Part shown: one piece after another, positions 3,760-23,788 of the stretch
Layout of the letters: every line of letters begins with the position of its first letter
Position numbering within the stretch: position 1 is the first letter of the stretch
Virus record (IMG/VR): IMGVR_UViG_3300027503_000002
From: a virus
DNA length: 64,000 nt
Strand: one strand, 5' to 3'
Notes under the pieces: model-generated
What the model saw: only the letters and a program-made list of their open reading frames with translations
Told to the model about the DNA's origin: nothing
The model's database searches: none
Position numbers and translations under genes: made by a program

Positions 3760-3841
3760 AATTAATTAAAAATGGGGAGTTGGCATAAGAATTGTCCGCC
3801 CACCCCCCCGTTTTTTTTTGAAAAAAAGTGCGCGAGATGGC

Positions 3842-3869
3842 TTGACGGCGGGCGAATCTGTGGTAGAGT
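3842..3869 (+). promoter_or_regulatory. sigma70-type early promoter, probably leaderless transcript
   Basis: TTGACG-16 nt-TAGAGT with TGTG before the -10, upstream A/T tracts, ATG 8 nt after the -10. Confidence 0.65.
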
Positions 3870-3877
3870 GATCGCGT

Positions 3878-4117
3878 ATGAATAACACCACCTCAATCAA
3901 ACGCGGTCGTGGGCGCCCTGTTGGCTCCACCTCCTTTGTCAACGTCAGCCTCGCTGACCTCGATCAGTTCATCGGCACCAAGAGCGCGATCCCTGTCTCG
4001 CGCGTCTGGCTCCAGAAGATGAACCTCACGGTCCAGCCGATCACCCGCTCGATCAACGAGGCCAGCGACACCACCGACACCACCCCCAAGGTGGAGTTCA
4101 AGATCACCAAGCTCTAA
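3878..4117 (+). CDS. AT-hook-containing small DNA-binding protein
   Basis: N-terminal KRGRGRP AT-hook motif. Confidence 0.6.
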   Translation: MNNTTSIKRGRGRPVGSTSFVNVSLADLDQFIGTKSAIPVSRVWLQKMNLTVQPITRSINEASDTTDTTPKVEFKITKL

Positions 4118-4132
4118 TTGGAGACTAATCAA

Positions 4133-5062
4133 ATGTCCCGTTTTGCTGAACTAGTTGGTCAGGCGGATGTCAAGAAGAAGCTCGACTTCTATCTCGACGC
4201 CCACGAAAAGAGCCGCAAGTTCCCGTTCCTTCTCCTCACCGGAGCCAAGGGTATGGGCAAGACCGAGTTCGCCAAGGAGACTGCCCGTGGCCTCAAGGCT
4301 GCGGACGGCGCGCCCAAGGCTTTCCTCGAAATCAACTGCGGCACGATCAAGAATGCTCAAGTGTTCTTTGAACAGGTGTTTGCTCCAGTGATCCAAGGCA
4401 ACGAGATCACTGTTCTCTTGGATGAGTGTCACGCTCTCCCCAAGGACTTGATGACTGTTCTGCTTTCTGCGTTCAATACGGAGAAGACGGAGATCAAGCA
4501 AGTTACTTGGCGCGAGGGTATGTACGAGTTCAACTTCAAGAAGCAGACGTTTATGCTCGCTACCACCGAGCCTGATCGCCTGTTTGCCCCCTTGAAGGAT
4601 CGCCTGACTCATATCGATTTCCAGACCTATTCCGTGTCGGATGTCGCGAAGATTATCCAAAAGATTCTTCCTGATGTTTCGTTCAAGGGCGAGGCTCTGG
4701 ACCGCATCGCGACCACTGTCCGTGGCAACGCTCGCTCCTCCGTCCAGCGTGCGAAGCAGATCGAGATGTACTGTGAGACCAAGGCTAAAAAGGATTTCGG
4801 TTGCAAGGAGTGGGACGACCTTTGCAGCAAGATCGGCATCAACCCCTCTGGTCTTAACAACACCGAAATTCAGATTCTCCGTGCGTTGAAGGATCGTGGC
4901 GACTGCTCCCTGAATATGCTGTCAGCTATTACGGGAATGAGCCGCTCGTCCCTTCAGCGTGATTCCGAGGTCTTCCTGCTCCAGAAGGGGTTTATGAAGA
5001 TCGAGGGTCAGCGCAAGCTCACGGTGGCAGGCGCGAAGGTGTTAGAGCAAGTCAAGGCTTAA
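4133..5062 (+). CDS. ruvB: RuvB-like AAA+ ATPase (Holliday junction branch-migration helicase family)
   Basis: FAELVGQ N-terminus, Walker A GAKGMGKT, Walker B LLDECH, ATT..APLKDR sensor/Arg finger, C-terminal winged-helix-like segment; ATG at 4133. Confidence 0.8.
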   Translation: MSRFAELVGQADVKKKLDFYLDAHEKSRKFPFLLLTGAKGMGKTEFAKETARGLKAADGAPKAFLEINCGTIKNAQVFFEQVFAPVIQGNEITVLLDECHALPKDLMTVLLSAFNTEKTEIKQVTWREGMYEFNFKKQTFMLATTEPDRLFAPLKDRLTHIDFQTYSVSDVAKIIQKILPDVSFKGEALDRIATTVRGNARSSVQRAKQIEMYCETKAKKDFGCKEWDDLCSKIGINPSGLNNTEIQILRALKDRGDCSLNMLSAITGMSRSSLQRDSEVFLLQKGFMKIEGQRKLTVAGAKVLEQVKA

Positions 5063-5310
5063 CTTCATACCGAGACTGGGCAACCGTGCGTGAGTGGTGG
5101 CCCAACAATTTTCCCAGTCAAGTTAGAACAGCATTCCGCTGAGCCCACAAACAAAACAAAATAGTTAGTAATCAACAGTGGTGGCCCTACGCAAAACACA
5201 GGCACGGGTAAAGCCTTAACTTGACTGGGTTCCTTTTAAATAATAACGAAAGAGAAAGCAAATAATAACAAATAAGTGCGAAATAAATAAAAGCAAGCTC
5301 ACAAGTGGGA

Positions 5311-5363
5311 TACGTAGTTCTACGTAGCCGGGCCAGGCCCGGTTGTAAAAAAAATGTAAAAAA
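5311..5363 (+). repeat. conserved intergenic palindromic element, copy 1
   Basis: TACGTAG-TT-CTACGTA + CCGGGCC-A-GGCCCGG (5328-5342) + TTGTAAAAAAAATGTAAAAAA. Confidence 0.95.
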
Positions 5364-5422
5364 TGGTTTTCGTGCAAGATTGTTCTCGCGCAGCCACCCC
5401 TCTTCTGATCTACTTCTGGCGT

Positions 5423-5641
5423 ATGAAACTAAAGCGCGTTTGCCAGTTCAACGGGAGGGTCTACGAGATGGACTTCCCCAATATGACCGCGTCGCAGTAT
5501 TACGACGCCCGTGAGAAGTGGAAGGGTGGCCTGCTGATTCAGCAGGCGTTTCCCTTCTTGACCGCCGATGAGCGGGAGTTCATTATGACCGGAACGCCCC
5601 CGCACGTTTGGAAAGAGATCTTCGCGCAGCACGACCTATGA
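5423..5641 (+). CDS. hypothetical early protein
   Basis: cgtATG start at 5423; LIQQAFPFLTADEREFIMTG-type small phage protein. Confidence 0.65.
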   Translation: MKLKRVCQFNGRVYEMDFPNMTASQYYDAREKWKGGLLIQQAFPFLTADEREFIMTGTPPHVWKEIFAQHDL

Positions 5642-5820
5642 AGCCGATGACCCAACCCACCTACGCTTACTTGCGCGGGTTTCTCGATGCTTACAACATT
5701 GGCGCCTATCAATTCGATGCGCGCCGAAGCGAGTTGACCAGCCCCAACGCTGGAAGCGATTACAAGGCTGGATACGATAAGGGAATGACCTTCTATGCGG
5801 ATGACAATAATTTAGATTAA
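5638..5820 (+). CDS. hypothetical protein
   Basis: ATGA overlap with upstream gene; YKAGYDKG motif. Confidence 0.55.
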   Translation: MKPMTQPTYAYLRGFLDAYNIGAYQFDARRSELTSPNAGSDYKAGYDKGMTFYADDNNLD

Positions 5821-5852
5821 AAAACTGGTGGGTGGGGTGTTTACCCCAGCCG

Positions 5853-5889
5853 CCCGGCCTGGCCCGGTTGTAAAAAAAATGTAAAAAAA
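5853..5889 (+). repeat. conserved intergenic palindromic element, copy 2
   Basis: CCCGGCCTGGCCCGG + TTGTAAAAAAAATGTAAAAAAA. Confidence 0.9.
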
Positions 5890-5910
5890 GCGCGAACCGA
5901 AGTCCGCGCT
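5883..5910 (-). terminator. intrinsic terminator for the minus-strand unit 6414-5919
   Basis: AGCGCG...CGCGCT hairpin; the A-tract of repeat copy 2 supplies the U-tract. Confidence 0.6.
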
Positions 5911-5918
5911 TGACTCTC

Positions 5919-6206
5919 TCAGATTTGCCCCAGAAGCACGCTTTCCACGTACTCCTTGCCTTGGGCGAGCGTCGCCTCTGGACAGATATCGCGCACAGCC
6001 TTGATCAGGGTGATCTTGTTGGCGATGGGGTGGCTCTCCCGCGCCTGCCTCTGCGCCTCATCCCAGAGGGTGGTGAGCGCCATCCGCACCTTGGCGCTGT
6101 TGAGATCGGCGCCCCTGTCAAAGCTGATTTCGATTTCGCTATTGCACACGCCCAGCTTGGCGGCGAAGTGGTTGACGATGTCCTCGCGGTCGATGATGAC
6201 TTTCAT
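5919..6206 (-). CDS. protein with ribosomal bL12 (L7/L12) C-terminal-like domain
   Basis: ATG at 6206 (MKVIIDRED); C-terminus NKITLIKAVRDICPEATLAQGKEYVE resembles the bL12 CTD pattern KI.VIK.VR.....L.EAK..VE. Confidence 0.55.
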   Translation of the reverse strand: MKVIIDREDIVNHFAAKLGVCNSEIEISFDRGADLNSAKVRMALTTLWDEAQRQARESHPIANKITLIKAVRDICPEATLAQGKEYVESVLLGQI

Positions 6207-6207
6207 A

Positions 6208-6414
6208 TTACAGGATGTTGTGGTTTTGCAGGAAGGTGACGTATTGGTCGAGCAGGGTTTTCTTGTTCTTGGTGCGCGACCCGATGAGGTAGCGGATTTG
6301 CGGGGCAACGCTCTTGCCCGAGGAGTGACGGAGCCCGAGGGTTTCGAGCTTGAGCGCGCCCTTGAGGGCGAGCAGGCGGTAAGCGAAGATCTTGTCAGGA
6401 GTGTCAGCAATCAT
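6208..6414 (-). CDS. hypothetical early protein
   Basis: ATG at 6414 (MIADTPDK..LKGALKLETLGL); upstream TTGCAG-16-CATTCT promoter at 6543-6516. Confidence 0.6.
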   Translation of the reverse strand: MIADTPDKIFAYRLLALKGALKLETLGLRHSSGKSVAPQIRYLIGSRTKNKKTLLDQYVTFLQNHNIL

Positions 6415-6597
6415 CTTTTTGTATGGGTTAGAATTGGAGCCGCGCTGCCTGCCTCCTATGTGGCGGGTGATTAGGGAGTCTTCACGGCTTCGGTTTCTCC
6501 CCGTCAGCAAGGGAGAGAATGGAGTTTGCTCTGCGCTCTGCAACACTTTTCTGCGGACATTTTTCGTGCCAAGCCCTCCCAAAAAGCGTGTCAATGG

Positions 6598-6654
6598 GTA
6601 GAACTACGTATTTTTTGCCCAGGCCAGGCCCGGCTGTAAAAAAATTGTAAAAAA
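6598..6654 (+). repeat. conserved intergenic palindromic element, copy 3
   Basis: GTAGAACTACGTA + CCAGGCCAGGCCCGG + CTGTAAAAAAATTGTAAAAAA; about 45 nt of the left flank also resembles the left flank of copy 8. Confidence 0.9.
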
Positions 6655-6754
6655 TCGCCCATCAGAAGAAAAGTCTCGCCAGCGCGCGCCGTTCGGGCAT
6701 TCTTCCGCGCTTTTTCGCCCCCCTCCCCCCCCTCAAAAAAAAGCAAAAAAAGGT

Positions 6755-6783
6755 TTGCACGCGCGGTCCCGAGCGCCCAACCT
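6755..6783 (+). promoter_or_regulatory. early promoter, leaderless
   Basis: A-tracts, TTGCAC-17-CAACCT, ATG 8 nt downstream. Confidence 0.55.
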
Positions 6784-6791
6784 CCTAGCGT

Positions 6792-7565
6792 ATGAACTCC
6801 ATCAACCTCCGCATCTGCGGCTCAGACAATTCCGAGGTCAGCGTCGCTGAACTCGCCGCCATCAAGTCGCCCGAGAAGACGGCGACCTATCAGCCCATCC
6901 CGCACTCTGATCTCGTTTCGATCTTCCGCGACAATATGCGCGCGGCGGATTTGACCATCAAGCAGGAACTGCACACGGTTTCCCGCTTCGGTCAGCGTTA
7001 CTTCGGCCTTTTCGAGATTGACCTCGGCAAGGCTGGCACCGCTGGCACCGTCGTCGGCTTGCGTAACTCGCACGACAAGAGCTTCCCCGCTGGCATCTGC
7101 GCGGGCAACGCTCCTTTCGTTTGCAGCAATCTCGTTTTCCACAACGAGGTTGTGTTCACCCGTCGCCATACGTCGAACGTGCTGCGCGACTTGCCCCAGA
7201 TTGTCGGGCGTGCGATTGGTGCCTTGTCCGATATGTGGACGAAGCACGAAACCCGCGTCTCGACCTATCAGGGGCGCGAGCTTTCCGATGAGGAGGCTGG
7301 CAATCTGATCCTGCGTAGCTATCGGGCCGGTGCAATCGGCAAGACGATGATCGCGGATGTTCTCGATCAATGGGAGAAGCCCGCGCACGAAGAGTTTGCC
7401 CCGCGCAACCTCTGGTCCCTGCACAACGCCTTCACCGAGGTGTACAAGGGGAACTTGCTTGCGCTCCCCAAGCGCAGCCAAGCCCTGCACTCCATCTTCG
7501 ATCCGTTCGCGGGTCTGAACCTCACGGTTGACATCAAGCCCGAGGTGGAGGTGGCGACGGTCTAA
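6792..7565 (+). CDS. DUF932-family protein
   Basis: YQPIPH, GLRNSHD, FVCSNL and RRHT motifs typical of DUF932 phage/plasmid proteins. Confidence 0.75.
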   Translation: MNSINLRICGSDNSEVSVAELAAIKSPEKTATYQPIPHSDLVSIFRDNMRAADLTIKQELHTVSRFGQRYFGLFEIDLGKAGTAGTVVGLRNSHDKSFPAGICAGNAPFVCSNLVFHNEVVFTRRHTSNVLRDLPQIVGRAIGALSDMWTKHETRVSTYQGRELSDEEAGNLILRSYRAGAIGKTMIADVLDQWEKPAHEEFAPRNLWSLHNAFTEVYKGNLLALPKRSQALHSIFDPFAGLNLTVDIKPEVEVATV

Positions 7566-7571
7566 GCTATC

Positions 7572-7598
7572 GGGGGCGGTGACAGCGCCCCCTTTTTT
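7572..7598 (+). terminator. intrinsic terminator
   Basis: GGGGGCG-loop-CGCCCCC followed by T6. Confidence 0.75.
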
Positions 7599-7665
7599 CC
7601 CCTTTGCTATATCAAATTTTGCTTATTGTTCTGCTATTGTTTATTTTGCTTAGAAAAAAATTGCG

Positions 7666-7959
7666 ATGAATATCCAATCTATCGACTTTCTGAACGAACG
7701 CCTGAAGGGTTCGGAACTTTATGTAAACAAGACGCCCGAGGAGGCTCAAGCTATGTTTGATCAGGAGGTGCAAGTTGTCACTCCGCGCATCAACGGCTGG
7801 CTGACGCGCAGCGAAAGGTGGAAAGTCGCCTTCTATGCTCAGAAGCTGCCGCGCCTTACTGAACGCAAGAATTGTTCCGTTCACCTTTACAACATCGCGG
7901 TGAAACTCAACATCTCACTCGCTACAGTAAACAACTATAGATACTATAGCGGCTGGTGA
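7666..7959 (+). CDS. hypothetical protein, possible C-terminal HTH
   Basis: LYNIAVKLNISLATVNNY helix-turn-helix-like end. Confidence 0.5.
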   Translation: MNIQSIDFLNERLKGSELYVNKTPEEAQAMFDQEVQVVTPRINGWLTRSERWKVAFYAQKLPRLTERKNCSVHLYNIAVKLNISLATVNNYRYYSGW

Positions 7960-8000
7960 TATAGCAAGTCCCGCCCACTAGGGGGAAACCCCTAGGGGGG

Positions 8001-8036
8001 CCGGGCCAGGCCCGGTTGTAAAAAATTTGTAAAAAA
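8001..8036 (+). repeat. conserved intergenic palindromic element, copy 4
   Basis: CCGGGCCAGGCCCGG + TTGTAAAAAATTTGTAAAAAA. Confidence 0.95.
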
Positions 8037-8164
8037 TCCCCCTCCCTCAGAAAAGCCTTGACGCCCCCGCCGCCCGCCGCGCCGCCGCCGTGTCAAGCAA
8101 AGAAATTGGGGCCATTGCATTTTTTTTGTTTATTTATCTCCGCGCGCGCCTATTCTTTCCCCGT

Positions 8165-8860
8165 ATGAAACTTAACTTGCTCTCCTGCAATTCCGATGCG
8201 AAAACCTCCAAGGGCGAGGCTTTCGGGTGGCTGACGGCAATCCTTTACCTTGCGCCCGCGCGCCTTGCGGGCCGTGGCGAGGTTTGCAAGTGGCGCTCAA
8301 AAAACTGCACGCTTGCGTGCCTTTACACCGCCGGACGCGGTCAAATGAATTCCGTGCAAGCTGCGCGCGTGCGCCGGACGCAACTGTTTTTCGATGATTT
8401 CGCCACCTTCAAGGCTCTTTTGCTTGCCGATATCGCCGCTTTCGTCAAGTACGCAATCGCGAACGGATTGAAGCCTTGCGTGCGTTTGAACGGAACGAGT
8501 GACATTTCGTGGGAGCGCCTCGGCATTTTCGACAAGTTCCCTTCCGTGCAATTCTACGATTACACAAAGTCACCTATCCGCGCGCTTCAATTTGCCAAGG
8601 GCGCGATGCCTTCAAATTATCACTTGACTTTCTCGCGCAGCGAGGAAAACGAGAGTCAGGCGCTCGATGTCCTTTGCAACGGCGGTAACGTGGCGGCGGT
8701 CTTCCTTTCTTCAGTCTTCCCGAAAACTTGGAACGGTTTCCAAGTGGTGGACGGTGACCGGCACGACTTGCGCTTTCTTGACGGCGCGAACAAACTGGTT
8801 GCCCTAAAGGCAAAGGGCAAAGCAAAGCAAGACGTTTCCGGCTTTGTCATCCGTGCGTGA
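8165..8860 (+). CDS. Gp88-like protein (Cys-motif, possibly Fe-S binding)
   Basis: ATG 8165, 8 nt after TATTCT; C-x5-C-x3-C (CKWRSKNCTLAC), RLNGTSDI, FYDYTK, NYHLTFS, DGDRHDLRFLD motifs. Confidence 0.65.
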   Translation: MKLNLLSCNSDAKTSKGEAFGWLTAILYLAPARLAGRGEVCKWRSKNCTLACLYTAGRGQMNSVQAARVRRTQLFFDDFATFKALLLADIAAFVKYAIANGLKPCVRLNGTSDISWERLGIFDKFPSVQFYDYTKSPIRALQFAKGAMPSNYHLTFSRSEENESQALDVLCNGGNVAAVFLSSVFPKTWNGFQVVDGDRHDLRFLDGANKLVALKAKGKAKQDVSGFVIRA

Positions 8861-8981
8861 CGCAAACTTTTTCTTTTCTGTTCTACTGTTTCTCCTAGTA
8901 GTAGCTTTTCTACTGACAAAGCGAAGTTTGAAGAAATAGCGCCGCCGAGAGCCCCCGCCCCTTGTCAAGGGGTGGGGACGA

Positions 8982-9016
8982 TTTTTACATAATTTTTACA
9001 ACCGGGCCAGGCCCGG
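8982..9016 (-). repeat. conserved intergenic palindromic element, copy 5 (inverted)
   Basis: TTTTTACATAATTTTTACAA-CCGGGCCAGGCCCGG is the reverse orientation; sits where + and - transcription converge. Confidence 0.9.
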
Positions 9017-9050
9017 CCAAAGTGGGGAATTTTCCCCACCCTGCCGCCCC

Positions 9051-9221
9051 TTAACTTACTTCAAAAGGCAATTCGGTTTGATAAGTCTCCCACTTAGCTT
9101 CCGCCTCGTCTTTATCGGTATTTTCAAGGTCAAGGTCAATGATCTCAACCTCTATGTCAACAGAGGAGCGGATGCCTTGAATGGCGCCGCCCTCAACCCA
9201 GATTGCAATTTTGTTTTTCAT
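9051..9221 (-). CDS. small acidic protein (56 aa, not in ORF track)
   Basis: Read by hand: MKNKIAIWVEGGAIQGIRSSVDIEVEIIDLD...; ATGA overlap with the hydrolase gene. Confidence 0.65.
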   Translation of the reverse strand: MKNKIAIWVEGGAIQGIRSSVDIEVEIIDLDLENTDKDEAEAKWETYQTELPFEVS

Positions 9222-9661
9222 CGGTAAAAAACGTGATTTTTTATCTTAACAGTCTTTTTGAGCTTGCTTGCCCAACTGGGGGACACCGTTCCGTTGTGGT
9301 AATGCGTGGCGCCTTTCGTGTGGTTCGTGAGCTTGCCCCGCGCAATCTCCAGAGCAAGCGCCCAATTCTTGTGACGCTTTGCCTTTTCAATTCCCGTGCC
9401 GACAGCAAGACCGTTCCAACAAGAGAATTGCTTGGGGGCGAGGCAAACGATCATCTCGCCCTTGCCCTTGGCACGATTGGCGATCACTTCGCGGACCGCC
9501 TCCATACCTTCGCGCCCCTCGCCGCCCGCCTCCATAATGAGGGTAGCGGCGACCACTTCAGTCTGGGAGACTGTAACCGTGACGCTCTGCACTTGCGGCA
9601 ACGAAGCCGCCCCAGAAAAGGTCGCTGTCAGAAGCAGGAGGGAAACCATTTTGTTTTGCAT
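9218..9661 (-). CDS. cell wall hydrolase, SleB/Hydrolase_2 family, with signal peptide
   Basis: TLIMEAGGEG..GM.AV..VI.NR, PKQFSCWN, GATHYH, IKNHVFY; hydrophobic N-terminus. Confidence 0.85.
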   Translation of the reverse strand: MQNKMVSLLLLTATFSGAASLPQVQSVTVTVSQTEVVAATLIMEAGGEGREGMEAVREVIANRAKGKGEMIVCLAPKQFSCWNGLAVGTGIEKAKRHKNWALALEIARGKLTNHTKGATHYHNGTVSPSWASKLKKTVKIKNHVFYR

Positions 9662-9730
9662 ATTCCTGAACTTTATCAGTGTTCCAATTGAACGCAAGGA
9701 TTAATTTCGCAATTTTGAAGACATTCATAC

Positions 9731-10030
9731 TTAGACGGTGATGCCCTTATGGGTGAAGTTACTGATCTTTTCGAGGTTGAAACTCTTGTAAGCGTGGCCC
9801 GTGGGCGTGTCCTCGTTGTTCGTCTTGACGGTCAAGAACTCGTTGCCAGCCTTGGAAACCACAATCGCTTTGCTTTCGTGCTCACCCCAAACGCGGTGGC
9901 CGAAAGGCTTGTAGCCGATCACGCCGTTGCGGCGCTTAGTCGCGCCGTCCTTGTCAGGGTAGTCAAACGACACGATAGCGGCGCCGTTGGCAACGATCTT
10001 CTCGATGATGGAACGTAGGTTGTTATTCAT
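9731..10030 (-). CDS. WYL-like/SH3-barrel small protein
   Basis: VSFDY.DKDG..KRR...YKSFNLEKI pattern; own promoter TTGATC-16-TATCTT at 10067-10040. Confidence 0.5.
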   Translation of the reverse strand: MNNNLRSIIEKIVANGAAIVSFDYPDKDGATKRRNGVIGYKPFGHRVWGEHESKAIVVSKAGNEFLTVKTNNEDTPTGHAYKSFNLEKISNFTHKGITV

Positions 10031-10063
10031 ACGGGAAACAAGATACCACAGGCCAAGCGCCGA

Positions 10064-10600
10064 TCAAGCGTTTTCCTCATCTTCTTGCGGCTCCCACCCA
10101 AAGTGTTCGCGCACAAATTCTTGCCAATCTTTTTTGTTCGATTCTTCCAAGGTCAAGCTCACGGTCTCGATAGTTTCGCCCTCATTGAAGATTTCATAGC
10201 CCGCAAAACCGTTGCCTTCCTCGGCGTAGATGATTTGGAAGTTCGCGGGAAACATCGCAGAAAGCTTTTTGATTGCAATGGTGGGCGGGCTCCAAGCCGA
10301 ATCAAAAGAAAAAAACATCATATTTTCATTGCTCGACACCTCGTCAAACTCGGCTTCGATGTCCCATTTGGTGCCCCAATTATGCACGTTCCAGTCGTAC
10401 CAGTTGTCGTAACCGTACTTCACGACAAAGGCGATGCTTTCCTCTTCTGTTCCCTTGAACGGAGCTTGACGCTCGATCAATTCGTTGGGCGTGGGGGCAA
10501 TCTTGGCAAGGGTCAACTCGACATCTTCACCCAGCCACTCACGGAAGGCGGTCAAGTCTTTTCCCCAGACGAGCAATTTGTTTTGGCACCAGTTTGGCAT
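10064..10600 (-). CDS. DUF1281/Api92-like ferredoxin-fold protein
   Basis: MPNWCQN start (ATG 10600), WYDWNVHNWGTKWD and FDSAWSPP motifs. Confidence 0.7.
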   Translation of the reverse strand: MPNWCQNKLLVWGKDLTAFREWLGEDVELTLAKIAPTPNELIERQAPFKGTEEESIAFVVKYGYDNWYDWNVHNWGTKWDIEAEFDEVSSNENMMFFSFDSAWSPPTIAIKKLSAMFPANFQIIYAEEGNGFAGYEIFNEGETIETVSLTLEESNKKDWQEFVREHFGWEPQEDEENA

Positions 10601-10720
10601 AGGTCGGCAAACTGACAGACTGTGGGCGCTGTGCAAGCTTTTTTTTGCTAAAAAATTAGCAAATCAGCAAATACGAAATAGACAAATAAAAGTTTGGGGG
10701 GGGCAGGGGGGGGAAGTCAA

Positions 10721-10779
10721 TACGTAGAACTACGTAGTGGCCGGGCCAGGCCCGGTTGTAAAAAAATGGTAAAAAAAAA
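10721..10779 (+). repeat. conserved intergenic palindromic element, copy 6
   Basis: TACGTAG-AA-CTACGTA + CCGGGCCAGGCCCGG (10741-10755) + TTGTAAAAAAATGGTAAAAA. Confidence 0.95.
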
Positions 10780-10799
10780 GGGGGGCTTGCGCCCCCCCG
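10771..10799 (-). terminator. intrinsic terminator
   Basis: A9 followed by GGGGGGC-TTGC-GCCCCCC, directly after the stop of 11130-10801. Confidence 0.7.
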
Positions 10800-10800
10800 C

Positions 10801-11130
10801 TCACACCCCGTCGTCCTCCCAAGGGTTGTAGTAGCCCCCCTCGTTCCGCTCCTCCCAATAGGAGTCCAGATGGGCGTCCTCGGCGGGGTGCGCGGGCTGG
10901 TAGTCCTCGTTGGTGCCGTGCCCAGCGGAGGCGAGGGCGTCGCCGTCAGCCTCGGCGTCGCTGCGGAAGCCGTCAAACGGCTCGTCGCTGTCCTGCTCGG
11001 CAACGAGGTAGGCCGAATTGAGGTTGTCGATGATGGTCTCCAGTTGGGGCATATTGACGCGACCGCTGACATCGCGCAGGGCGGACAGAACAAGGGAGGC
11101 TTCGGTGAGGGTGAGGGGCAGGTTGATCAT
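10801..11130 (-). CDS. acidic hypothetical early protein
   Basis: D/E-rich (DAEADGDALASAGHGTNEDY); promoter TTGACC-16-CATTCT at 11182-11155. Confidence 0.65.
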   Translation of the reverse strand: MINLPLTLTEASLVLSALRDVSGRVNMPQLETIIDNLNSAYLVAEQDSDEPFDGFRSDAEADGDALASAGHGTNEDYQPAHPAEDAHLDSYWEERNEGGYYNPWEDDGV

Positions 11131-11193
11131 AGGATGATGATGGTTGCAGGACAGAGAATGACTCAGTTTTGCGTGCGGTCAATTTTTATTTGG

Positions 11194-11279
11194 TAAGTAG
11201 AACTACGTATTGACCGGGCCGGGCCCGGTTGTAAAAAATTTGTAAAAATGCATCTCTACGTATTACTACCTACTTGACA
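11194..11279 (+). repeat. conserved intergenic palindromic element, copy 7 (with right arm)
   Basis: TAAGTAGAACTACGTA + CCGGGCCGGGCCCGG + TTGTAAAAAATTTGTAAAAA + degenerate CTACGTA site + TTGACA. Confidence 0.9.
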
Positions 11280-11312
11280 AGGTTATGTAAGATTTTCCGA
11301 CACAACAGGGCG

Positions 11313-11334
11313 AAAAAAAAGGGGCTTTCGCCCC
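11313..11334 (-). terminator. intrinsic terminator
   Basis: A8-GGGGC-TTTC-GCCCC. Confidence 0.65.
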
Positions 11335-11343
11335 CCGCTAGGG

Positions 11344-11574
11344 TTAACCCTGCCACTCCCTGCGGGGCAGGGGGTAGTACGGCTCGGTGTTGAAATCGGC
11401 CAGCGCATCGCGCAGGCACGCGCGGACGATGGCGTCGTCCTCGATGATATCGCCGTCCAGATTTTCAACGACGATGTCGAGCACCTCGGCGCGACCGTTG
11501 CGCGTCGCCTCAAGCTCCGCGCGGTAGAAGTAAACTTCGCCGTTGATGGTGATTTCCACAGGTTCAATGTTCAT
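11344..11574 (-). CDS. hypothetical early protein
   Basis: Leaderless arrangement TTGCGG-16-TACTCT-7-ATG. Confidence 0.65.
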   Translation of the reverse strand: MNIEPVEITINGEVYFYRAELEATRNGRAEVLDIVVENLDGDIIEDDAIVRACLRDALADFNTEPYYPLPRREWQG

Positions 11575-11634
11575 GAGAGAGAGAGTAAGGAGAGAGAGGG
11601 TAACCGCAAGCTTTTTTTCGTGTTTTTTTAGTAG

Positions 11635-11660
11635 AAAAAAGGGGGCGATTTCTCGCCCCC
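11635..11660 (-). terminator. intrinsic terminator
   Basis: A6-GGGGGCGA-TTTC-TCGCCCCC. Confidence 0.7.
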
Positions 11661-11667
11661 GAGAGAT

Positions 11668-11853
11668 TCAGGAAGTCGGGCCGGTGTCAAGGCCCACATC
11701 GGCGCCGTATTGAAACGTGCGGTCCCAAGCGTCTTCTTCCGCGACGAACAGCGCAGCCATATCGTCCAGAAACTTTTTCATCCCGATATGGTCAACGTCC
11801 GACATCGGGGAGTAGTGGTCCTTCTTGAGGGCGGGGGGATTAATGATGTTCAC
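11668..11853 (-). CDS. hypothetical early protein
   Basis: GTG start at 11853, 7 nt after TTGTGT-16-CATTCT. Confidence 0.55.
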   Translation of the reverse strand: MNIINPPALKKDHYSPMSDVDHIGMKKFLDDMAALFVAEEDAWDRTFQYGADVGLDTGPTS

Positions 11854-11943
11854 AGGGGAGAGAATGAACCGCGCGCAGCCGAACACAAGCTTTTTTTTGA
11901 TTATTTTCGGGACATTTTCCGTGCCAAGGGGTGCAAGAAACCT

Positions 11944-12038
11944 TGTCAATGCGTAGAACTACGTATTTTTTGGCCGGGCCAGGCCCGGTTGTAAAAATTT
12001 TGTAAAACTAACGATCTACGTAGAAGTACCCATTGACA
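11944..12038 (+). repeat. conserved intergenic palindromic element, copy 8 (both arms)
   Basis: TGTCAA-TGCGTAGAACTACGTA-CCGGGCCAGGCCCGG-TTGTAAAAATTTTGTAAAA-CTACGTAGAAGTAC-TTGACA. Confidence 0.95.
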
Positions 12039-12080
12039 CACCCCCTGTAAGCTTTTCCTACAGGGGGGTGTCGGGAAACC

Positions 12081-12329
12081 TTACCAGACGATCTTGCCCA
12101 CCTTGCCCCCGCTGTTGCGGGTCTCGGCTTCGGCCTGATAGCCTTGCAAGATGGACACCATCGCAGCGGCGAGGGCGTTGCTCTGCTCCCAAGTCAAGTC
12201 GGGAACGGCCTTTTTGAAGTCGCTCGCGTGGCAGAACGGGCTCGCGTTCAGCGCGCGCGTGGCGAAGTAGAAGTTGGCGCGATCCGCATTGATCTGCGCT
12301 TCGGTCTTGTGGATGGTCTGGTATTCCAT
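12081..12329 (-). CDS. hypothetical early protein
   Basis: 82-aa ORF downstream of 12570-12367. Confidence 0.6.
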   Translation of the reverse strand: MEYQTIHKTEAQINADRANFYFATRALNASPFCHASDFKKAVPDLTWEQSNALAAAMVSILQGYQAEAETRNSGGKVGKIVW

Positions 12330-16690: not shown

Positions 16691-16927
16691 TTATTTTTTT
16701 TTAAGTTTAAATTTACCGTCTTCTAATTCCGCCCACTCGATATCATCGCCCTCTTTCCAACCTAAGCTTTTCAGCATCTTTTCAGGAATCTCAATATATT
16801 GGTCGCCGTTGTCAAGTGTTTTTAGGGGAACAATGATATTTTTCTGGTTAAAAATGTTGTCCCAGTTTTCGGAGTACTGGTCATACTTTACTGAAAATGG
16901 ACGCGGTTTAGATCCTTTGCCGTTCAT
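16691..16927 (-). CDS. AbrB/MazE/SpoVT-type DNA-binding protein
   Basis: IEIPEKMLKSLGWKEGDDIEW swapped-hairpin signature. Confidence 0.7.
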   Translation of the reverse strand: MNGKGSKPRPFSVKYDQYSENWDNIFNQKNIIVPLKTLDNGDQYIEIPEKMLKSLGWKEGDDIEWAELEDGKFKLKKK

Positions 16928-18902: not shown

Positions 18903-19286
18903 ATGTCCACTGTTTTCTGCTCTAGTTGCGGAGCAAAGCATCAATATGCTGGTTTTCCGCCCAACTTCTGTTCAAAATGCGGCTCACCAATGACAGCAAA
19001 GGCTGTTCAGCAGAGTTCCGCAAGAGTGCAGCCACAAAAAACAGTAGAGCCTGCTGACAACGAAGAAATTTCAGAGGATCAGAGCGACATTAATGAGCTT
19101 CCTCATTTAGACAAGTTAGATGTAGAAATCTCTATCGAAGGAGGCTTCAGAGCCTTTAGTTTAGAAGAGCTTTCTACTTCGCCAACGACAGCAAGAACAC
19201 AAAAGTTCAAGCCAATTCGTCGTGACGGCATATCAGACTTGTCTCCTCAGAAATACGGAAGCTCAAAGAATGAGGCGCAAGATTAA
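18903..19286 (+). CDS. zinc-ribbon protein
   Basis: FCSSCG...FCSKCG. Confidence 0.65.
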   Translation: MSTVFCSSCGAKHQYAGFPPNFCSKCGSPMTAKAVQQSSARVQPQKTVEPADNEEISEDQSDINELPHLDKLDVEISIEGGFRAFSLEELSTSPTTARTQKFKPIRRDGISDLSPQKYGSSKNEAQD

Positions 19287-19977
19287 GTACGAGGAAAAGC
19301 AAGACGTAGTAGATCGGATAATCGAAAAGCACAGATATATGTGGCAGCTAAAGGCTGTTGCGTGGATGGATTTCGAAGATGTGGCGCAAATAATTAGATT
19401 TCACATCTCCAAAAAGTGGCATATGTGGAAACAGGATCGGCCTCTTGAGCCTTGGTTGGCTAGAATCGCATCCAATCAAATCAAGAATCTTTTAAGAAAT
19501 AATTACTCCAATTACGTTCGTCCTTGTTTAAGTTGCAAATACAATCAGGGGAATGAGCCGCCTGCCTGCTCTGTTACTCCAAGCGGACTGCAATGCTCAG
19601 AATGCCCGCTTTATCGTAAATGGGAAAAGACCAAGAAGAGTGCTTATGATGTTAAGCTTTCTGTTTCCATAGAAGGCCATATAGACAATGTCTATGCAAT
19701 GAAAGACAGCAGTTTGGACATATTGTCCAGCGCAAATAAGCTACACGAAGAGATGAGGCTTTATCTTGCACCGAAACAGTACAAGGTTTATGCCAGACTC
19801 TATATCGATGGAGCAGATGAAGAAAAGGTTGCCGCAGAAATGGGGTACAAGACAAATGAAAAGGGCAAGAAGGCGGGATACAAGCAAATCAAGAATTTAA
19901 AGAAGCTTTTTAAGCAGATCGCTTTAAAAATTCTACAAAACGAGGACATCATCACTGGTTATGAATCTAGAAATTAA
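19270..19977 (+). CDS. phage sigma-70/ECF-like sigma factor with Cys-rich insertion
   Basis: Region-2-like DFEDVAQ..LEPWLARIASNQIKNLLR, insertion CLSC..C..CSECP, C-terminal HTH-like EEKVAAEMGY; ATG at 19270. Confidence 0.6.
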   Translation: MRRKIKYEEKQDVVDRIIEKHRYMWQLKAVAWMDFEDVAQIIRFHISKKWHMWKQDRPLEPWLARIASNQIKNLLRNNYSNYVRPCLSCKYNQGNEPPACSVTPSGLQCSECPLYRKWEKTKKSAYDVKLSVSIEGHIDNVYAMKDSSLDILSSANKLHEEMRLYLAPKQYKVYARLYIDGADEEKVAAEMGYKTNEKGKKAGYKQIKNLKKLFKQIALKILQNEDIITGYESRN

Positions 19978-21022
19978 ATTTACCCCAGAAGATGGAGAAA
20001 AGATTAAAAAGCTTGCGGCTGAATTTCCTGATTTAAATCTAATCACAAGAAAGTTTTTTAACGACGAAGAGTTGGATGGTAGAAGTAAACAGGGCATCGC
20101 AATCAGGGCTTTCTTAGCCGCAAACAAAATTAATTACAAGACTTCTAAGTACCAGAAGGTTGGAAGTTTACCGCTAACTGATGAGCAAAAAGATTTTATA
20201 GAAGGTCAGGCCAAAATGGGGGTGGCGAGTCTTCAGATAGCGGAGTTGGTTTACCCAGATAAGCAAGTAGTGCAGTTGAGCACTGAGCACAGAACAGTGA
20301 TGGAGTATTTACGCTCAATTGGGGATGGGTCAATGCCAGAAAATGAAACGGCGCTAGGCGTCAAATATCAAGTTCCGCGCTCAGTAGAGCGCGTTATAAA
20401 TAAAATCAATGCGGCAACAGGCGAAAATCTGAATAAAGAAAAGATCAGCCGTCACCACAAGTATTGCATAGATAAACTCGCCATAAACTTATCCAATTCC
20501 CGCTTCCAAAAGATCATCAATTGCTATACATCCCAAGAGGATAGGAATATTTTTGAGGAGGAGTTTATACGTATGACTTGGGACAAGCCTGATCTCACTG
20601 CGGACGAGGTTAATTTGTATATGAATGTTTGCAAAGAAATCATTAACCTCGAAACTACTTCGCGTCACTTGGACAAGCTGAATAAAATGTTTGAAGAGAC
20701 GCAGGAACAAAATGAAATGAGTATTCGTTTGGCCGAGATTATCAAAGCCAAAAGCGGGGAGTATCACCAATGCGAAGGTCGCGTTGAAAGCTTAATTAAA
20801 AAGCTGCAAGGTGATAGAGCAGGCAGAATTAATGCAAAACAAAAGGAAAATGCGTCTGTTTTGTCAATTGTGCAAATGTTTCAAGACGAAGAAGAGCGAG
20901 CTAATATGGTGAAGATCGCTGAGATGCAAAGGTCTCTGGTTAAGGATGAAGCGCAAAGACTGGAGAGTATGTCGGAATGGAAAGCTCGTATTCTTGGCAT
21001 ATCATTAGATGATGCAGTGTAA
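19961..21022 (+). CDS. hypothetical protein (candidate terminase small subunit by position)
   Basis: HTH-like SLQIAELVY and coiled-coil C-terminus; two genes upstream of TerL. Confidence 0.4.
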   Translation: MNLEIKFTPEDGEKIKKLAAEFPDLNLITRKFFNDEELDGRSKQGIAIRAFLAANKINYKTSKYQKVGSLPLTDEQKDFIEGQAKMGVASLQIAELVYPDKQVVQLSTEHRTVMEYLRSIGDGSMPENETALGVKYQVPRSVERVINKINAATGENLNKEKISRHHKYCIDKLAINLSNSRFQKIINCYTSQEDRNIFEEEFIRMTWDKPDLTADEVNLYMNVCKEIINLETTSRHLDKLNKMFEETQEQNEMSIRLAEIIKAKSGEYHQCEGRVESLIKKLQGDRAGRINAKQKENASVLSIVQMFQDEEERANMVKIAEMQRSLVKDEAQRLESMSEWKARILGISLDDAV

Positions 21023-21971
21023 AATATGCGACGTTTCTTTTCCTTCTGAGAGAAGCTTGCACGCTCACTTAAAGAAGCATAAGGCTTCTTTGGGTGAATA
21101 CTACACTACTTACTATCCCCGCAAAAATCTTTTGACTGGAACCTTGCTTCCGTTTAAAGACAAAGAGTCGTATTTTGAGAAGGACTTTGAAAATAGAGAG
21201 CAGCTTTTGAGGTGGTGCGAGATAGAGTCAGCAGAAAATGTCAAAGCGCAGATCAAAAAGATGCTTGCGTACAGGGTCGAAAGTAAAGATTTAAAATACG
21301 CACCGTTTCACTTGGAGTTGGAAACTAGTGAGATGCCAACAATTGATTTGTATAAAAAGCATTTTGGCAGTTACTCTAAAGCCTGCGACGAAATTGGGGC
21401 AGAGCCAATGTTTAGAAGGAGTTTGCCAAAAAAGTTTTATGAAGACTTTTCTGAAGTTGAAATCTTTGTGGATACAAGAGAGCAACAACCGTTGAGTTTT
21501 AAAAACGAGAAGCAAGTTAAGCTAGATTTTGGCGATTACACTGCCAGCGGGGCCAATTATACAAAAACATTTGTGGACCGCAAGTCAGAGTCTGATTTTA
21601 AAGGAACTTTAGTGGGAGATAACCTAGACAGGTTCAAGCGCGAGCTTCAGAGAGCGAAGGAGATGGAGTGTTATCTGTTTATTGTCGTGGAATCTACTTT
21701 AGAACGTATAAGTAGTAATAATGACTTTACTCCTCATAAGGCGAATCTTAAATTTATTTACCATAATATGAGATTGCTGCAACACGAATTTGCGGGGTAT
21801 TGTCAATTTATATTCTCGGGCAATAGAAAGAACAGCGAGGTTCTTATTCCAAAGCTTTTGGCTATTGGCAGTCCTCTTTGGGATGTGGATGTTCAATATT
21901 TTTTAGATAAGGATTCTTTATGGCTTGGATCGAAGGAAACCAAAAAAGAAAAAGCACCTTCAGCAAGGTAA
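21009..21971 (+). CDS. C2H2 zinc finger + ERCC4-type nuclease
   Basis: CKIC..HAHLKKH; IFVDTREQ, LDFGDY, VDRKS..DF (ERCC4/XPF signature). Confidence 0.75.
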   Translation: MMQCKICDVSFPSERSLHAHLKKHKASLGEYYTTYYPRKNLLTGTLLPFKDKESYFEKDFENREQLLRWCEIESAENVKAQIKKMLAYRVESKDLKYAPFHLELETSEMPTIDLYKKHFGSYSKACDEIGAEPMFRRSLPKKFYEDFSEVEIFVDTREQQPLSFKNEKQVKLDFGDYTASGANYTKTFVDRKSESDFKGTLVGDNLDRFKRELQRAKEMECYLFIVVESTLERISSNNDFTPHKANLKFIYHNMRLLQHEFAGYCQFIFSGNRKNSEVLIPKLLAIGSPLWDVDVQYFLDKDSLWLGSKETKKEKAPSAR

Positions 21972-23788
21972 ACGAAGAGATCCTTAAACACAAGGGATTT
22001 CTGGAAGAGCGGGACGCTAAAATCCTGCTCTATAAATTTTTGCGTAGTAATATATCGTTTTCTTCTGAAATGATATGCGGTGTTAAGCTTTTCCCGTTCC
22101 AGCATCTCGCAATCAAGACGATGTTTGAGACCGACTACTCGATGATGGTTTGGAGCCGTGGTCTTTCCAAGAGTTTTACTTGTGCAGTTTTTGCATCCTT
22201 GGACGCCATCTTGAATCAGGGCGTTCATATTGGCATTGTCAGCAAAACATTTCGTCAGGCAAAAATGATTTTCCGTAAGATTGAAGAGATCTCTGAAAAG
22301 CCAAATGCAGCATTTTTAAAACAGTGCATCACAAAGGTCTCTAAAAGCTCGGACGAGTGGACGATGGAAATAGGGCGTAGTAAAATTACTTGTCTGCCGC
22401 TTGGTGATGGCGAAAAGCTTCGTGGCTTCCGCTTTCATAGAATGATGATCGACGAGTTCTTGTTGATGCCAGAAAGAATCTTCAACGAAGTTATTATTCC
22501 GTTCCTTTCTGTTGTGCAAAATCCAACTGAAAGAAAACAGGTATACGATTTGGAAACTGAGTTAATTAAACGCGGCGATATGAAAGAGGAGGATCGCTTT
22601 CGTTGGCCTAATAATAAAATTATTGTGCTTTCGTCAGCCTCTTATCAGTTTGAGTATATGTACAAGCTTTACAAGCAGTACGAGTCACTGATCAATTACC
22701 CAGAAAAAGACGGTAAGGGTGGATCGACAAGAGCCATTTTGCATTTTTCTTATGATGTTGCTCCGCAGGGTTTGTATGACGAGAGTCTTTTGACGCAGGC
22801 AAAATCTACGATGTCTGAATCACAGTTTATGAGAGAGTTCGGCTCTAGATTTATGGATGATTCTTCTGGTTACTTTAAACTCAGCAAGATGCACGAATGC
22901 ACCATAAAAGCTGGCGAAGGTCAAAGCATAGAGGTGGCTGGAGAAAAAACCGCTGAATACATTCTTAGTTTTGACCCTTCTTGGGCAGAAAATGAGTCTT
23001 CTGACGATTTTGCGATGAATGTCATAAAGTTGGATAAAGCAAATAAGAGGGGCGTTCTTGTTCATAACTACGCAGTTTCTGGCGCAAATCTGAAAAAGCA
23101 TATCGAATATCTCCATTATTTAATGACCAGCTTTAATATCGTAGCGATGTGCGGCGACTACAATGGCGGTGTCCAATTCATTAATGCTGCAAATGAAAGT
23201 GAGTTATTCAAAAACGCAAAAATCGAAGTAAAGATGTTTGAGGCAGATTTTGATTCCCCAGAGAGCTATCAAACAGAACTCAGGAAGGCAAGATCAGCGT
23301 ATAGCTTAGAACAGAGGCGTATTTGTTATTTACGAGTTCCGACTAGCACTTGGATAAGATATGGTAACGAACTATTACAGTCTAACTTTGATCATAGAAA
23401 AATTTTATTCGCTGCTGAAGCGGTCAATGATGATTTTACTACTCAAAAGGGTAAAACAATTCCTATCAAGAACTTAAAGTTTGTAAGAGATCAAGAAGAT
23501 ACTCAAAGCATCGAGGCAAAGATGGTAGATTTTGTAGACCATCAAGCAGACATGATCGAATTGGTGAAAGCTCAATGTTCGTTAATTATTCCGACAACAA
23601 CTGCAAACGGCCATCAAAGCTTTGACTTGCCGCCAGAACTAAAGCGTCAAAGTGGCGCAGAGAAAACGAGAAAAGACTCTTATTCCTGTCTTGTCTTGGG
23701 CAACTGGATGACAAAAGTCTACTTTGATATGATGGAATGTCAGATGCAATCAGTATCTTCTACTTTTACGCCGTTTTTCGCTCGATAA
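21920..23788 (+). CDS. terL: terminase large subunit
   Basis: LFPFQ, SRGLSKS Walker-A variant, LRGFR..MIDEF Walker B, SFDPS..DDFA and RKDSYS nuclease motifs; directly upstream of portal. Confidence 0.85.
   Translation: MAWIEGNQKRKSTFSKVNEEILKHKGFLEERDAKILLYKFLRSNISFSSEMICGVKLFPFQHLAIKTMFETDYSMMVWSRGLSKSFTCAVFASLDAILNQGVHIGIVSKTFRQAKMIFRKIEEISEKPNAAFLKQCITKVSKSSDEWTMEIGRSKITCLPLGDGEKLRGFRFHRMMIDEFLLMPERIFNEVIIPFLSVVQNPTERKQVYDLETELIKRGDMKEEDRFRWPNNKIIVLSSASYQFEYMYKLYKQYESLINYPEKDGKGGSTRAILHFSYDVAPQGLYDESLLTQAKSTMSESQFMREFGSRFMDDSSGYFKLSKMHECTIKAGEGQSIEVAGEKTAEYILSFDPSWAENESSDDFAMNVIKLDKANKRGVLVHNYAVSGANLKKHIEYLHYLMTSFNIVAMCGDYNGGVQFINAANESELFKNAKIEVKMFEADFDSPESYQTELRKARSAYSLEQRRICYLRVPTSTWIRYGNELLQSNFDHRKILFAAEAVNDDFTTQKGKTIPIKNLKFVRDQEDTQSIEAKMVDFVDHQADMIELVKAQCSLIIPTTTANGHQSFDLPPELKRQSGAEKTRKDSYSCLVLGNWMTKVYFDMMECQMQSVSSTFTPFFAR

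Follow-up and report, generated by a model that had tools for sequence, protein, structure and literature searches.

A palindromic element between the transcription units of an uncultured phage's gene island, a possible PeSL-like boundary cassette

Repeated sites of operator type are known from mycobacteriophages, where they include the stoperators of Cluster A and the 17-bp palindromes of Cluster O. Thermus phage P23-45 has a virion RNA polymerase, fused to its tape measure protein, for which the pre-early region provides conserved promoter motifs and a terminator motif of 26 nt, all running in the direction of transcription (PMC10770324). Phage accessory genes, such as those for host takeover and anti-defence, turn over fast, and few of the systems behind this are understood. 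The main case that has been worked out is that of the promoter-early stem-loop (PeSL) cassettes of T4-like phages, which were defined and characterised in two studies (Arbiol et al., 2010, PMC2839356; Comeau et al., 2014, PMC4122927). Here, we analyse a 64,000-nt stretch of viral DNA (IMG/VR record IMGVR_UViG_3300027503_000002; hereafter, the window), in which eight copies of a composite palindromic element separate units of small genes. We suggest that this element is a PeSL-like cassette marking the boundaries of transcription units and also a crossover point for cassette shuffling, a reading to which we give an even chance.

Each copy is centred on an all-G/C palindrome of 15 bp, CCGGGCC-N-GGCCCGG (the core). 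The core is abutted by two TGTAAA (TGTAAAAAA) boxes, referred to as A boxes, that lie ~11 bp apart in helical phase; core and boxes together form a nucleus of 36 nt. Scanning for CCGGGCCNGGCCCGG with up to three mismatches yielded nine matches versus 0.81 expected, a count reached in none of 100 shuffles. The ninth match overlaps the copy at 8001, and the eight copies with boxes about one helical turn apart that a first-pass annotation of this DNA had described are thereby borne out. As that annotation had stated, there is no further core in the 64 kb: the copies span 5328-11988, and all eight are intergenic and confined to 5.3-12.0 kb (Table 1). The A boxes lie to the right of the core in seven of the eight copies and to the left in the inverted copy at 9002. 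Outside the nucleus, a TACGTAG-NN-CTACGTA dyad was matched eight times (up to three mismatches; 1.14 expected), and seven of these matches (5311, 6595, 10721, 11194, 11257, 11950 and 12017) fall within elements, in agreement with the earlier description. On the left, GTCAA accompanies copies 3, 6 and 8 as reported, and copy 7 in addition; on the right, the reported TTGACA was found beside copies 7 and 8. Full elements form ~100-nt quasi-palindromes with imperfect terminal inverted repeats of 17-21 nt, and copy 8 folds over its whole length as a long quasi-palindrome (z -3.96). Copy 3 is 85% identical to copy 8 over 98 nt (family D20).

The copies separate units of one to four small genes (50-260 amino acids, mostly without a family match), an arrangement that had been recognised from the start. 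Copy 3, and possibly copy 1, lies between divergent genes, copies 2 and 5 between convergent genes and copies 4, 6, 7 and 8 between genes in tandem. The inverted copy does sit where transcription converges, as first proposed, but it is not unique in this respect, given that the non-inverted copy at 5853 is convergent too. A consensus scan predicted canonical intrinsic terminators at copies 2, 5 and 6, and the T-tracts of all three are the A boxes read on the opposite strand (RNA folds, z -2.2 to -5.9). Genes that arrive from the box-free side end in a separate hairpin beside the palindrome (copies 2, 4 and 5), while those arriving through a dyad arm share a longer 3' hairpin that is placed a fixed few bases past the stop codons of unrelated genes. 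Among 27 distinct copies of the dyad-arm hairpin, two pairs covary (CG/UA/AU and AU/CG) and there is a single break. An Rfam search gave no family above threshold.

Predicted promoters of the outgoing genes read TTGnnn-N16-(C/T)AnTCT or TAGAGT with an A-run upstream and are found 30-150 nt outside the nucleus. Given that the start codon (ATG, GTG or TTG) follows 5-9 nt past the promoter, the transcripts are predicted to be leaderless, and no Shine-Dalgarno sequence is present. The earlier suggestion that the element carries outward-facing -35-like hexamers could not be upheld: in none of the arm classes is its TTGACA followed at 16-18 nt by a -10-like hexamer, and the predicted promoters lie further out. 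TTGAC is not enriched in the intergenic DNA of the island over island coding DNA. No promoter flanks the convergent copies 2 and 5.

In the reading we propose, every copy forms the unchanging centre (the nucleus) of a cassette that marks an intergenic boundary between self-contained and mostly leaderless promoter-gene-terminator units in the island of early accessory genes. Such a cassette would end the incoming transcript, carry regulatory sites and precede the promoter of the next unit. Regulators would bind the palindrome, a site for a conserved dimeric protein, as well as the AT-rich boxes and dyads that are particular to each lineage, and they would protect every unit against read-through from its neighbours and coordinate expression across units. 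All units are separated by the same recurring 36-110 nt, so homologous exchange could take place at the element: the general recombination system of the phage would cross over within these repeats, leading to reshuffling, deletion and insertion of cassettes, while the palindromic symmetry would permit a whole cassette to be inverted. Insulation, protein binding and a homologous rather than site-specific mode of recombination are the parts of this model that we infer.

The likeness to PeSLs that had been noted at the outset holds, in that the element stands between autonomous promoter-gene-terminator units of a hyperplastic island. In PeSLs, a stem-loop terminator just ahead of the promoter, an AT-rich tract, sigma-70-like -35 and -10 boxes ~17 nt apart, a Shine-Dalgarno sequence and the start codon all belong to the repeated unit, and exchange between adjacent copies gives minicircles. 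As with PeSLs, repeated copies of a composite intergenic motif occur only in a hyperplastic region, whose genes are small and for the most part orphans, and a G/C stem-loop lies beside an AT-rich tract, upstream of a promoter and a start codon. Degraded half-copies occur, homology of the repeat continues into the first codons of the downstream gene, and junctions of rearrangements between relatives fall in or beside the motif (11214, 11974 and 8036; many others are at gene borders). The two systems differ in several ways. Here, the -35/-10 promoter lies outside the constant unit, there is no Shine-Dalgarno part as the genes are leaderless, and copies are also found at convergent junctions without any promoter. 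The constant part, a perfect 15-bp palindrome with phased boxes, is by itself neither a promoter nor a canonical terminator. Some copies of the element have two arms and are symmetric, and inversion of cassettes is seen alongside their insertion and deletion. The palindrome is kept across lineages, whereas PeSL stem-loops vary between T4 subgroups, and the phage is a large siphovirus-type phage rather than a T4-like myovirus.

Could the element instead be a signal for a phage-specific transcription enzyme? TGTAAA might be a late promoter for a sigma-like factor, or hairpin and boxes together might form a promoter or terminator for a phage RNA polymerase. TGTAAA is present 9-30 nt upstream of the starts at 17013, 25776, 27436, 38669 and 50411 and likewise upstream of the minus-strand genes ending at 46393 and 47289, and the window encodes a protein with sigma-70 region 2 (19222-19977). 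The motifs of P23-45 offer a precedent, as these too are repeated signals of conserved sequence, placed among the genes that a long-tailed siphovirus expresses first (PMC10770324). However, the boxes point to a same-strand gene in three of the eight copies, whereas in the other five they face terminators or would give antisense transcripts. Other lineages keep the palindrome without TGTAAA boxes, no phage RNA polymerase was found in the window and, unlike the motifs of P23-45, the element has no consistent orientation relative to the genes. Overall, we consider this explanation very unlikely for the element itself; TGTAAA(n)TA near the starts of structural genes is a possible late-promoter motif for the sigma-like protein. 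Since core and boxes have no fixed orientation relative to transcription, a directional promoter is ruled out, and this candidate was rejected both ways on gene orientation. We also rejected a DNA-hairpin promoter of the N4 type. The stem and loop sizes of such hairpins (5-7 bp and 3 nt) fit, but a same-strand gene lies downstream in three of eight copies one way and four of eight the other, two copies face gene ends only, and no large virion polymerase was found, the 3022-amino-acid open reading frame encoding the tape measure protein.

A pure operator array, through which repressors or activators switch the whole early island and which has no part in termination or recombination, would account for other features. 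TACGTA dyads occur only in the intergenic DNA of the island, where there are nine TACGTA sites compared to four in the remaining 52 kb, and the 11-bp spacing of the boxes is as expected of head-to-tail dimers. Candidate DNA-binding proteins are encoded nearby: one with a helix-turn-helix (HTH)-like C-terminus (7666-7959), an AbrB/MazE-like protein (16691-16927) and the sigma-70 region 2 protein. The conservation of sequence rather than structure described below is in line with operators, too. On the other hand, copies 2 and 5 lie between convergent genes and have no promoter to control, the distance from element to promoter varies from 30 to 150 nt, and dyad arms precede gene ends (29) as often as gene starts (35). 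An operator array would also leave unexplained why flanks are exchanged at the nucleus edges, and we think it unlikely that this is all the element does. Stoperators and the Cluster O palindromes resemble the element as short sequences of protein-binding type with many copies in intergenic gaps, near promoters. Stoperators, however, are asymmetric, distributed genome-wide and oriented with transcription, whereas here a palindromic core with AT-rich boxes is restricted to one island and coincides with rearrangement junctions. In contrast to the stoperators, we know of no cognate repressor for the core. A further box, TTGGCACG-N4-TTGT, is found at three sites (Table 1) and is similar to the -24/-12 elements of sigma-54 promoters. 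A sigma-54 promoter became less likely, as the -12 element is GT or GA and not GC in nearly all copies (consensus TGGCACG-N4-TTGCW). In the L062 lineage, a TTGGCACG-type box forms an inverted pair, TGCCAA-N20-TTGGCA, and judging from its sequence the box is more likely an operator half-site.

Relatives of the window lineage provide information on both conservation and rearrangement. Pattern scans recovered the nucleus in 10 viral loci (six contigs) and 38 metagenome loci, often in several copies. Among 185,579 bacterial and archaeal species genomes, core plus box gave five single matches, all in unrelated metagenome-assembled genomes and all without the second box, which we judge to be chance occurrences. 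The arms of the palindrome are perfect in 64 of 81 unique contexts; one pair is broken in 16 and compensated in one, which argues that the sequence is conserved and not merely the pairing. Every core has a pair of A boxes on at least one side (none of 82 contexts is without), and about half have them on both; partial and degenerate forms of the element exist as well.

The island is bordered by collinear DNA with ~80% identity among relatives, which comprises the RuvB-like gene at its left end and, at its right end, the DNA from 12.85 kb onward. Between these flanks, cassettes are re-ordered and inverted. For example, the DUF932 gene and the gene 5423 homologue are inverted in relatives with respect to cores whose own orientation is unchanged, and the homologues of genes 9051 and 6208 are found beside the RuvB-like gene and beside the hydrolase, respectively. 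At the site orthologous to copy 1, five sequences have an invariant 36-nt nucleus with both flanks changed and the cassette inverted: depending on the relative, the left flank is a dyad or a hairpin and the right flank a promoter or a terminator. Homology with four relatives (L038, L037, L049 and L028) ends exactly at 11214, homology with two others (L035 and L027) ends at 8036, and another break with close relatives falls exactly at 11974. At the copy 7 site, L038 contains 106 extra nt between TTGACA and the core. Twelve types of left flank pair with more than one type of right flank and vice versa, one pair of types occurring in all four combinations. Over all contigs, 39% of the high-identity breakpoints are located no more than 100 nt from a core, compared to 20% expected.

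Several of these observations also weigh against our reading of the element as a boundary and crossover cassette. The enrichment of breakpoints near copies is only about two-fold, the counts of breakpoints and of flank combinations are phylogenetically non-independent, and many junctions with relatives of 80% identity lie at gene borders, 170-730 nt from any copy. Cassette shuffling with breakpoints at the element, as considered in the first-pass annotation, is supported by the differences in order and orientation, by several breaks at nucleus edges and by the reassortment of flanks. With respect to termination, the palindrome has no T-tract in either direction, being followed by TTGT and then A's here and lacking a T-tract in other lineages. 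It therefore does not have the form of an intrinsic terminator (a G/C hairpin with a direct T-tract), which is shown only by distinct hairpins that adjoin the A boxes and are read from the other strand. At copy 3, which lies between divergent genes, a terminator is not required, and a plain hairpin role cannot account for conservation at the sequence level, as 16 of 17 variant contexts break a pair. Contig ends, inspected as a sign of population variants, are not piled up at the element (two of 72 within 60 nt).

The palindrome extends well beyond the window lineage. Searching viral contigs with the protein encoded at 4133-5062 returned 12 distant loci in which the RuvB-like protein is 70-83% identical. 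In eight of these, the exact palindrome occurs one to nine times, always intergenic and downstream of the RuvB-like gene; one locus ends at the RuvB-like gene and does not capture the island, and the other three have shortened G/C palindromes or other repeats in place of the core. The flanking modules are wholly different by lineage. Cores of the window lineage are accompanied by TGTAAAAAA boxes and TACGTA dyads, those of L057-L062 by an A/T run and CTTGACA plus 8 nt on one side and TATATAGCGCTATATA-type boxes on the other, those of L067 and L068 by arrays of GTGGAACATTT boxes, and those of L063 by TTGCAA...TTTGCGA boxes. All of these lineage-specific boxes are AT-rich, and TGTAAA boxes are lacking in the other lineages that keep the palindrome. 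Given that the 15-mer outlasts all neighbouring signals and that synonymous sites are saturated at this distance, its sequence is under specific constraint. The simplest cause would be a conserved binding protein, which could be of phage or host origin.

Some variants in these lineages deserve mention in their own right. L059 has pairs of cores 80-95 nt apart (2186/2281, 6139/6218 and 8387/8466), and two of the three pairs enclose a short unit with CCTGGTGCACCTGG; such pairs might represent empty cassettes or encode a small RNA. In L064 (11545-15730), long tandem arrays of GGGGTAGG(T) replace the core, and L065 (10470-14165) has shortened cores (CCCGGCCNGG) flanked by TTGCAA boxes. The right-flank boxes of L057-L062 (e.g. 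ACACTATATAGTG) resemble the NrdR-box consensus, which may be coincidence.

The island begins directly downstream of two genes, encoding an AT-hook protein and a homologue of RuvB, the AAA+ motor of Holliday-junction branch migration. The latter matches RuvB_N (3e-9) and RuvB_C (1e-7) in Pfam and RuvB structures 1j7k and 1in4 in the PDB (E 7e-15 over residues 5-290), with RFC and DnaX at 2e-5 or worse. The clamp-loader label given by PHROGs was rejected, as PDB and Pfam favour a full-length RuvB. Neither RuvA nor RuvC was found among the open reading frames scanned. AT-hook homologues (51-79% identity) lie directly upstream of the RuvB-like gene in 12 of 12 distant loci, and every core in every locus is downstream of it.

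This constant gene pair raises the alternative of a dedicated recombination or junction site, at which the palindrome extrudes as a cruciform or is recognised directly, AT-hook protein and RuvB load and drive branch migration, and shuffling is the selected function. A full-length RuvB homologue that in all lineages examined is paired with an AT-hook protein immediately before the island, with all cores downstream, is what such a site would predict. The same holds for a palindrome that is kept across lineages while its flanks turn over next to AT-rich boxes, for flanks swapped exactly at the nucleus edges, for cassettes inverted between copies, and for full elements that fold as ~100-nt quasi-palindromes. 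Yet the link between gene pair and element is one of synteny only, and RuvB may serve general recombination or replication. We found no recombinase, transposase, integrase, resolvase or REP-associated tyrosine transposase (RAYT) near the island. With 7-bp arms that are all G/C and a 1-nt centre, the palindrome would not readily form a cruciform by itself, and crossover in the palindrome alone would yield cores without boxes, which are absent from all 82 contexts. Orthologous copies moreover keep private mutations across relatives (e.g. GGCCGGG at the equivalent of copy 5), which argues that exchange between copies is not frequent. We therefore regard a dedicated site as unlikely. A related proposal, namely that the palindrome is where the AT-hook protein and the RuvB-like motor load or recognise DNA, either as an orientation-blind system for moving cassettes or for DNA translocation or remodelling, appears distinctly unlikely; if true, the pair would be a machine encoded by the phage for diversifying its early genes, not a passive recombination hotspot. 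An integron attC site was rejected on three grounds: no integrase was found, cassettes lie in both orientations and the core is a perfect palindrome. No observation made here favours a role in staged DNA injection or in the initiation of replication, two further options raised in the first-pass annotation.

Quasi-palindromes of ~100 nt with 17-21 nt imperfect terminal inverted repeats, present at high copy number and accompanied by partial and degenerate forms, could also point to a selfish element similar to a miniature inverted-repeat transposable element (MITE) or to repetitive extragenic palindromic (REP) sequences, spread through intergenic DNA with TGTCAA-TACGTAG...CTACGTA-TTGACA as its termini. 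Copies 7 and 8 show no target-site duplication, searches near the island revealed neither a transposase nor a RAYT gene, and no relatives were seen that differ only by a whole element plus target-site duplication. Copies stand at orthologous positions across relatives that are ~20% diverged, they are confined to one island (with just the five single-box matches in bacterial genomes), and it is the centre rather than the ends that is constant. Taken together, a selfish element is most improbable. Like the element, REPs and bacterial interspersed mosaic elements (BIMEs) are G/C-rich palindromes positioned at gene 3' ends between transcription units; the effects that they can have include stabilisation or termination of transcripts, binding of nucleoid proteins and promotion of rearrangements. 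In contrast to the perfect 15-mer of a single phage group, REPs are imperfect, mobilised by RAYTs and located in bacterial chromosomes; as a repeat, the core was not found in the 185,579 bacterial and archaeal species genomes.

If the element is indeed a boundary cassette, PeSL logic would now be present in an unrelated, uncultured group of large freshwater phages of siphovirus type. To this logic it would add a palindromic nucleus that outlasts the other modules, a symmetry that permits inversion, and a constant linkage to AT-hook and RuvB genes. A conserved protein bound to the palindrome, if there is one, would offer a handle on how dozens of autonomous leaderless genes are insulated and coordinated. 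The element can also serve as a sequence tag for such islands in metagenomes.

Table 1. Positions of element copies, genes, gene units and predicted signals in the window
Feature	Position	Strand	Details
Upstream TTGGCACG box	3780-3795	+	
AT-hook protein gene	3878-4117	+	KRGRGRP motif; leaderless promoter TTGACG-N16-TAGAGT 3842-3869
RuvB homologue gene	4133-5062	+	AAA+ motor; left island border
Copy 1	5311-5363	+	dyad 5311-5326; core 5328-5342; A boxes 5343-5363; + gene 5423 downstream
Unit	5423-5820	+	two genes; no family match
Copy 2	5827-5911	+	convergent; core 5853-5867 (one arm mismatch); A boxes 5868-5889
Copy 2, hairpins	5827-5854; 5888-5911	+; -	3' hairpin of + gene; terminator stem, A boxes as T-tract
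Unit	5919-6414	-	two genes; no family match
Leaderless promoter	6516-6543	-	predicted
Copy 3	6555-6654	+	divergent; TTGGCACG box 6557-6572 (-); TGTCAA 6589-6594; half dyad 6595-6610
Copy 3, nucleus	6619-6654		core 6619-6633 (one mismatch); A boxes 6634-6654
Unit	6792-7959	+	two genes; DUF932, then protein with HTH-like C-terminus (7666-7959)
Copy 4	7978-8036	+	3' hairpin 7978-7995 of gene 7666-7959; core 8001-8015; A boxes 8016-8036
Unit	8165-8860	+	one gene; GP88 family
Copy 5	8953-9039	-	inverted, convergent; A boxes 8982-9001; core 9002-9016
Copy 5, hairpins	8953-8977; 9022-9039	+; -	GP88 terminator stem, A boxes as T-tract; end of gene 9051-9221
Unit	9051-10600	-	four genes; incl. SleB-type hydrolase and DUF1281_C protein
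Copy 6	10715-10798	+	GTCAA 10716-10720; dyad 10721-10736; core 10741-10755; A boxes 10756-10779
Copy 6, terminator	10779-10798	-	stem of gene 10801-11130; A boxes as T-tract
Unit	10801-11130	-	one gene; no family match
Copy 7	11155-11300	+	dyad 11194-11209; TTGA fused to core 11214-11228; A boxes 11229-11248
Copy 7, outer parts			predicted leaderless promoter 11155-11182 (-) of gene 10801-11130; second dyad 11257-11272; TTGACA 11274-11279; degenerate 3' hairpin arm
Unit	11344-11853	-	two genes; no family match
Leaderless promoter	11582-11609	-	predicted
Copy 8 (fullest form)	11861-12080	+	dyad 11950-11965; core 11974-11988; A boxes 11989-12007; dyad 12017-12032
Copy 8, left parts			predicted leaderless promoter 11861-11888 (-); TTGGCACG box 11912-11927 (-); TGTCAA 11944-11949
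Copy 8, right parts			TTGACA 12033-12038; covarying 3' hairpin ~12035-12076 abutting stop codon of gene 12081-12329
Unit	12081 onward	-	several genes; first 12081-12329
Large terminase subunit gene	21920-23788		
Tape measure protein gene	50411-59479		3022 amino acids

The window itself is part of a large tailed phage of siphovirus type from an uncultured freshwater source. Its G+C content is 52-56% over ~4-13 kb, compared to ~40% in the rest of the window, and genes were called by a score based on G+C at third minus second codon positions (GC3-minus-GC2). A blastn comparison of the island with 50,697 phage records returned no match and no cultured relative, and searches with the large terminase subunit, the GP88 protein and the RuvB-like protein gave distant matches only, with mixed hosts. 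Just 5' of the terminase gene, the protein encoded at 21009-21971 combines an N-terminal C2H2-type zinc finger with a homing-endonuclease-associated repeat and a weak match to the ERCC4 nuclease.

Four minor observations concern the DNA next to the copies and the starts of genes. An AT-rich non-coding stretch to the left of copy 1 (5215-5305) is the same in relatives down to single bases and can still be recognised in distant lineages; it might encode a small RNA or represent a regulatory array. An 84-nt G/C-rich insert (8037-8119), bounded by TTGACG and TGTCAA, separates the copy 4 A boxes from the GP88 promoter and is missing from the close relatives L035 and L027. Gene 6208 may start at the TTG at 6510, giving a protein of 100 rather than 68 amino acids. 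Lastly, where the arm type is the same, unrelated small orphan proteins encoded downstream have their first codons in common (MNNTT, MNTTT or MNLNT), as seen for gene 3878 of the window and for arms in L001, L004, L006, L029, L030, L034, L037, L039 and L049, indicating that the repeated unit reaches a few codons into the genes.

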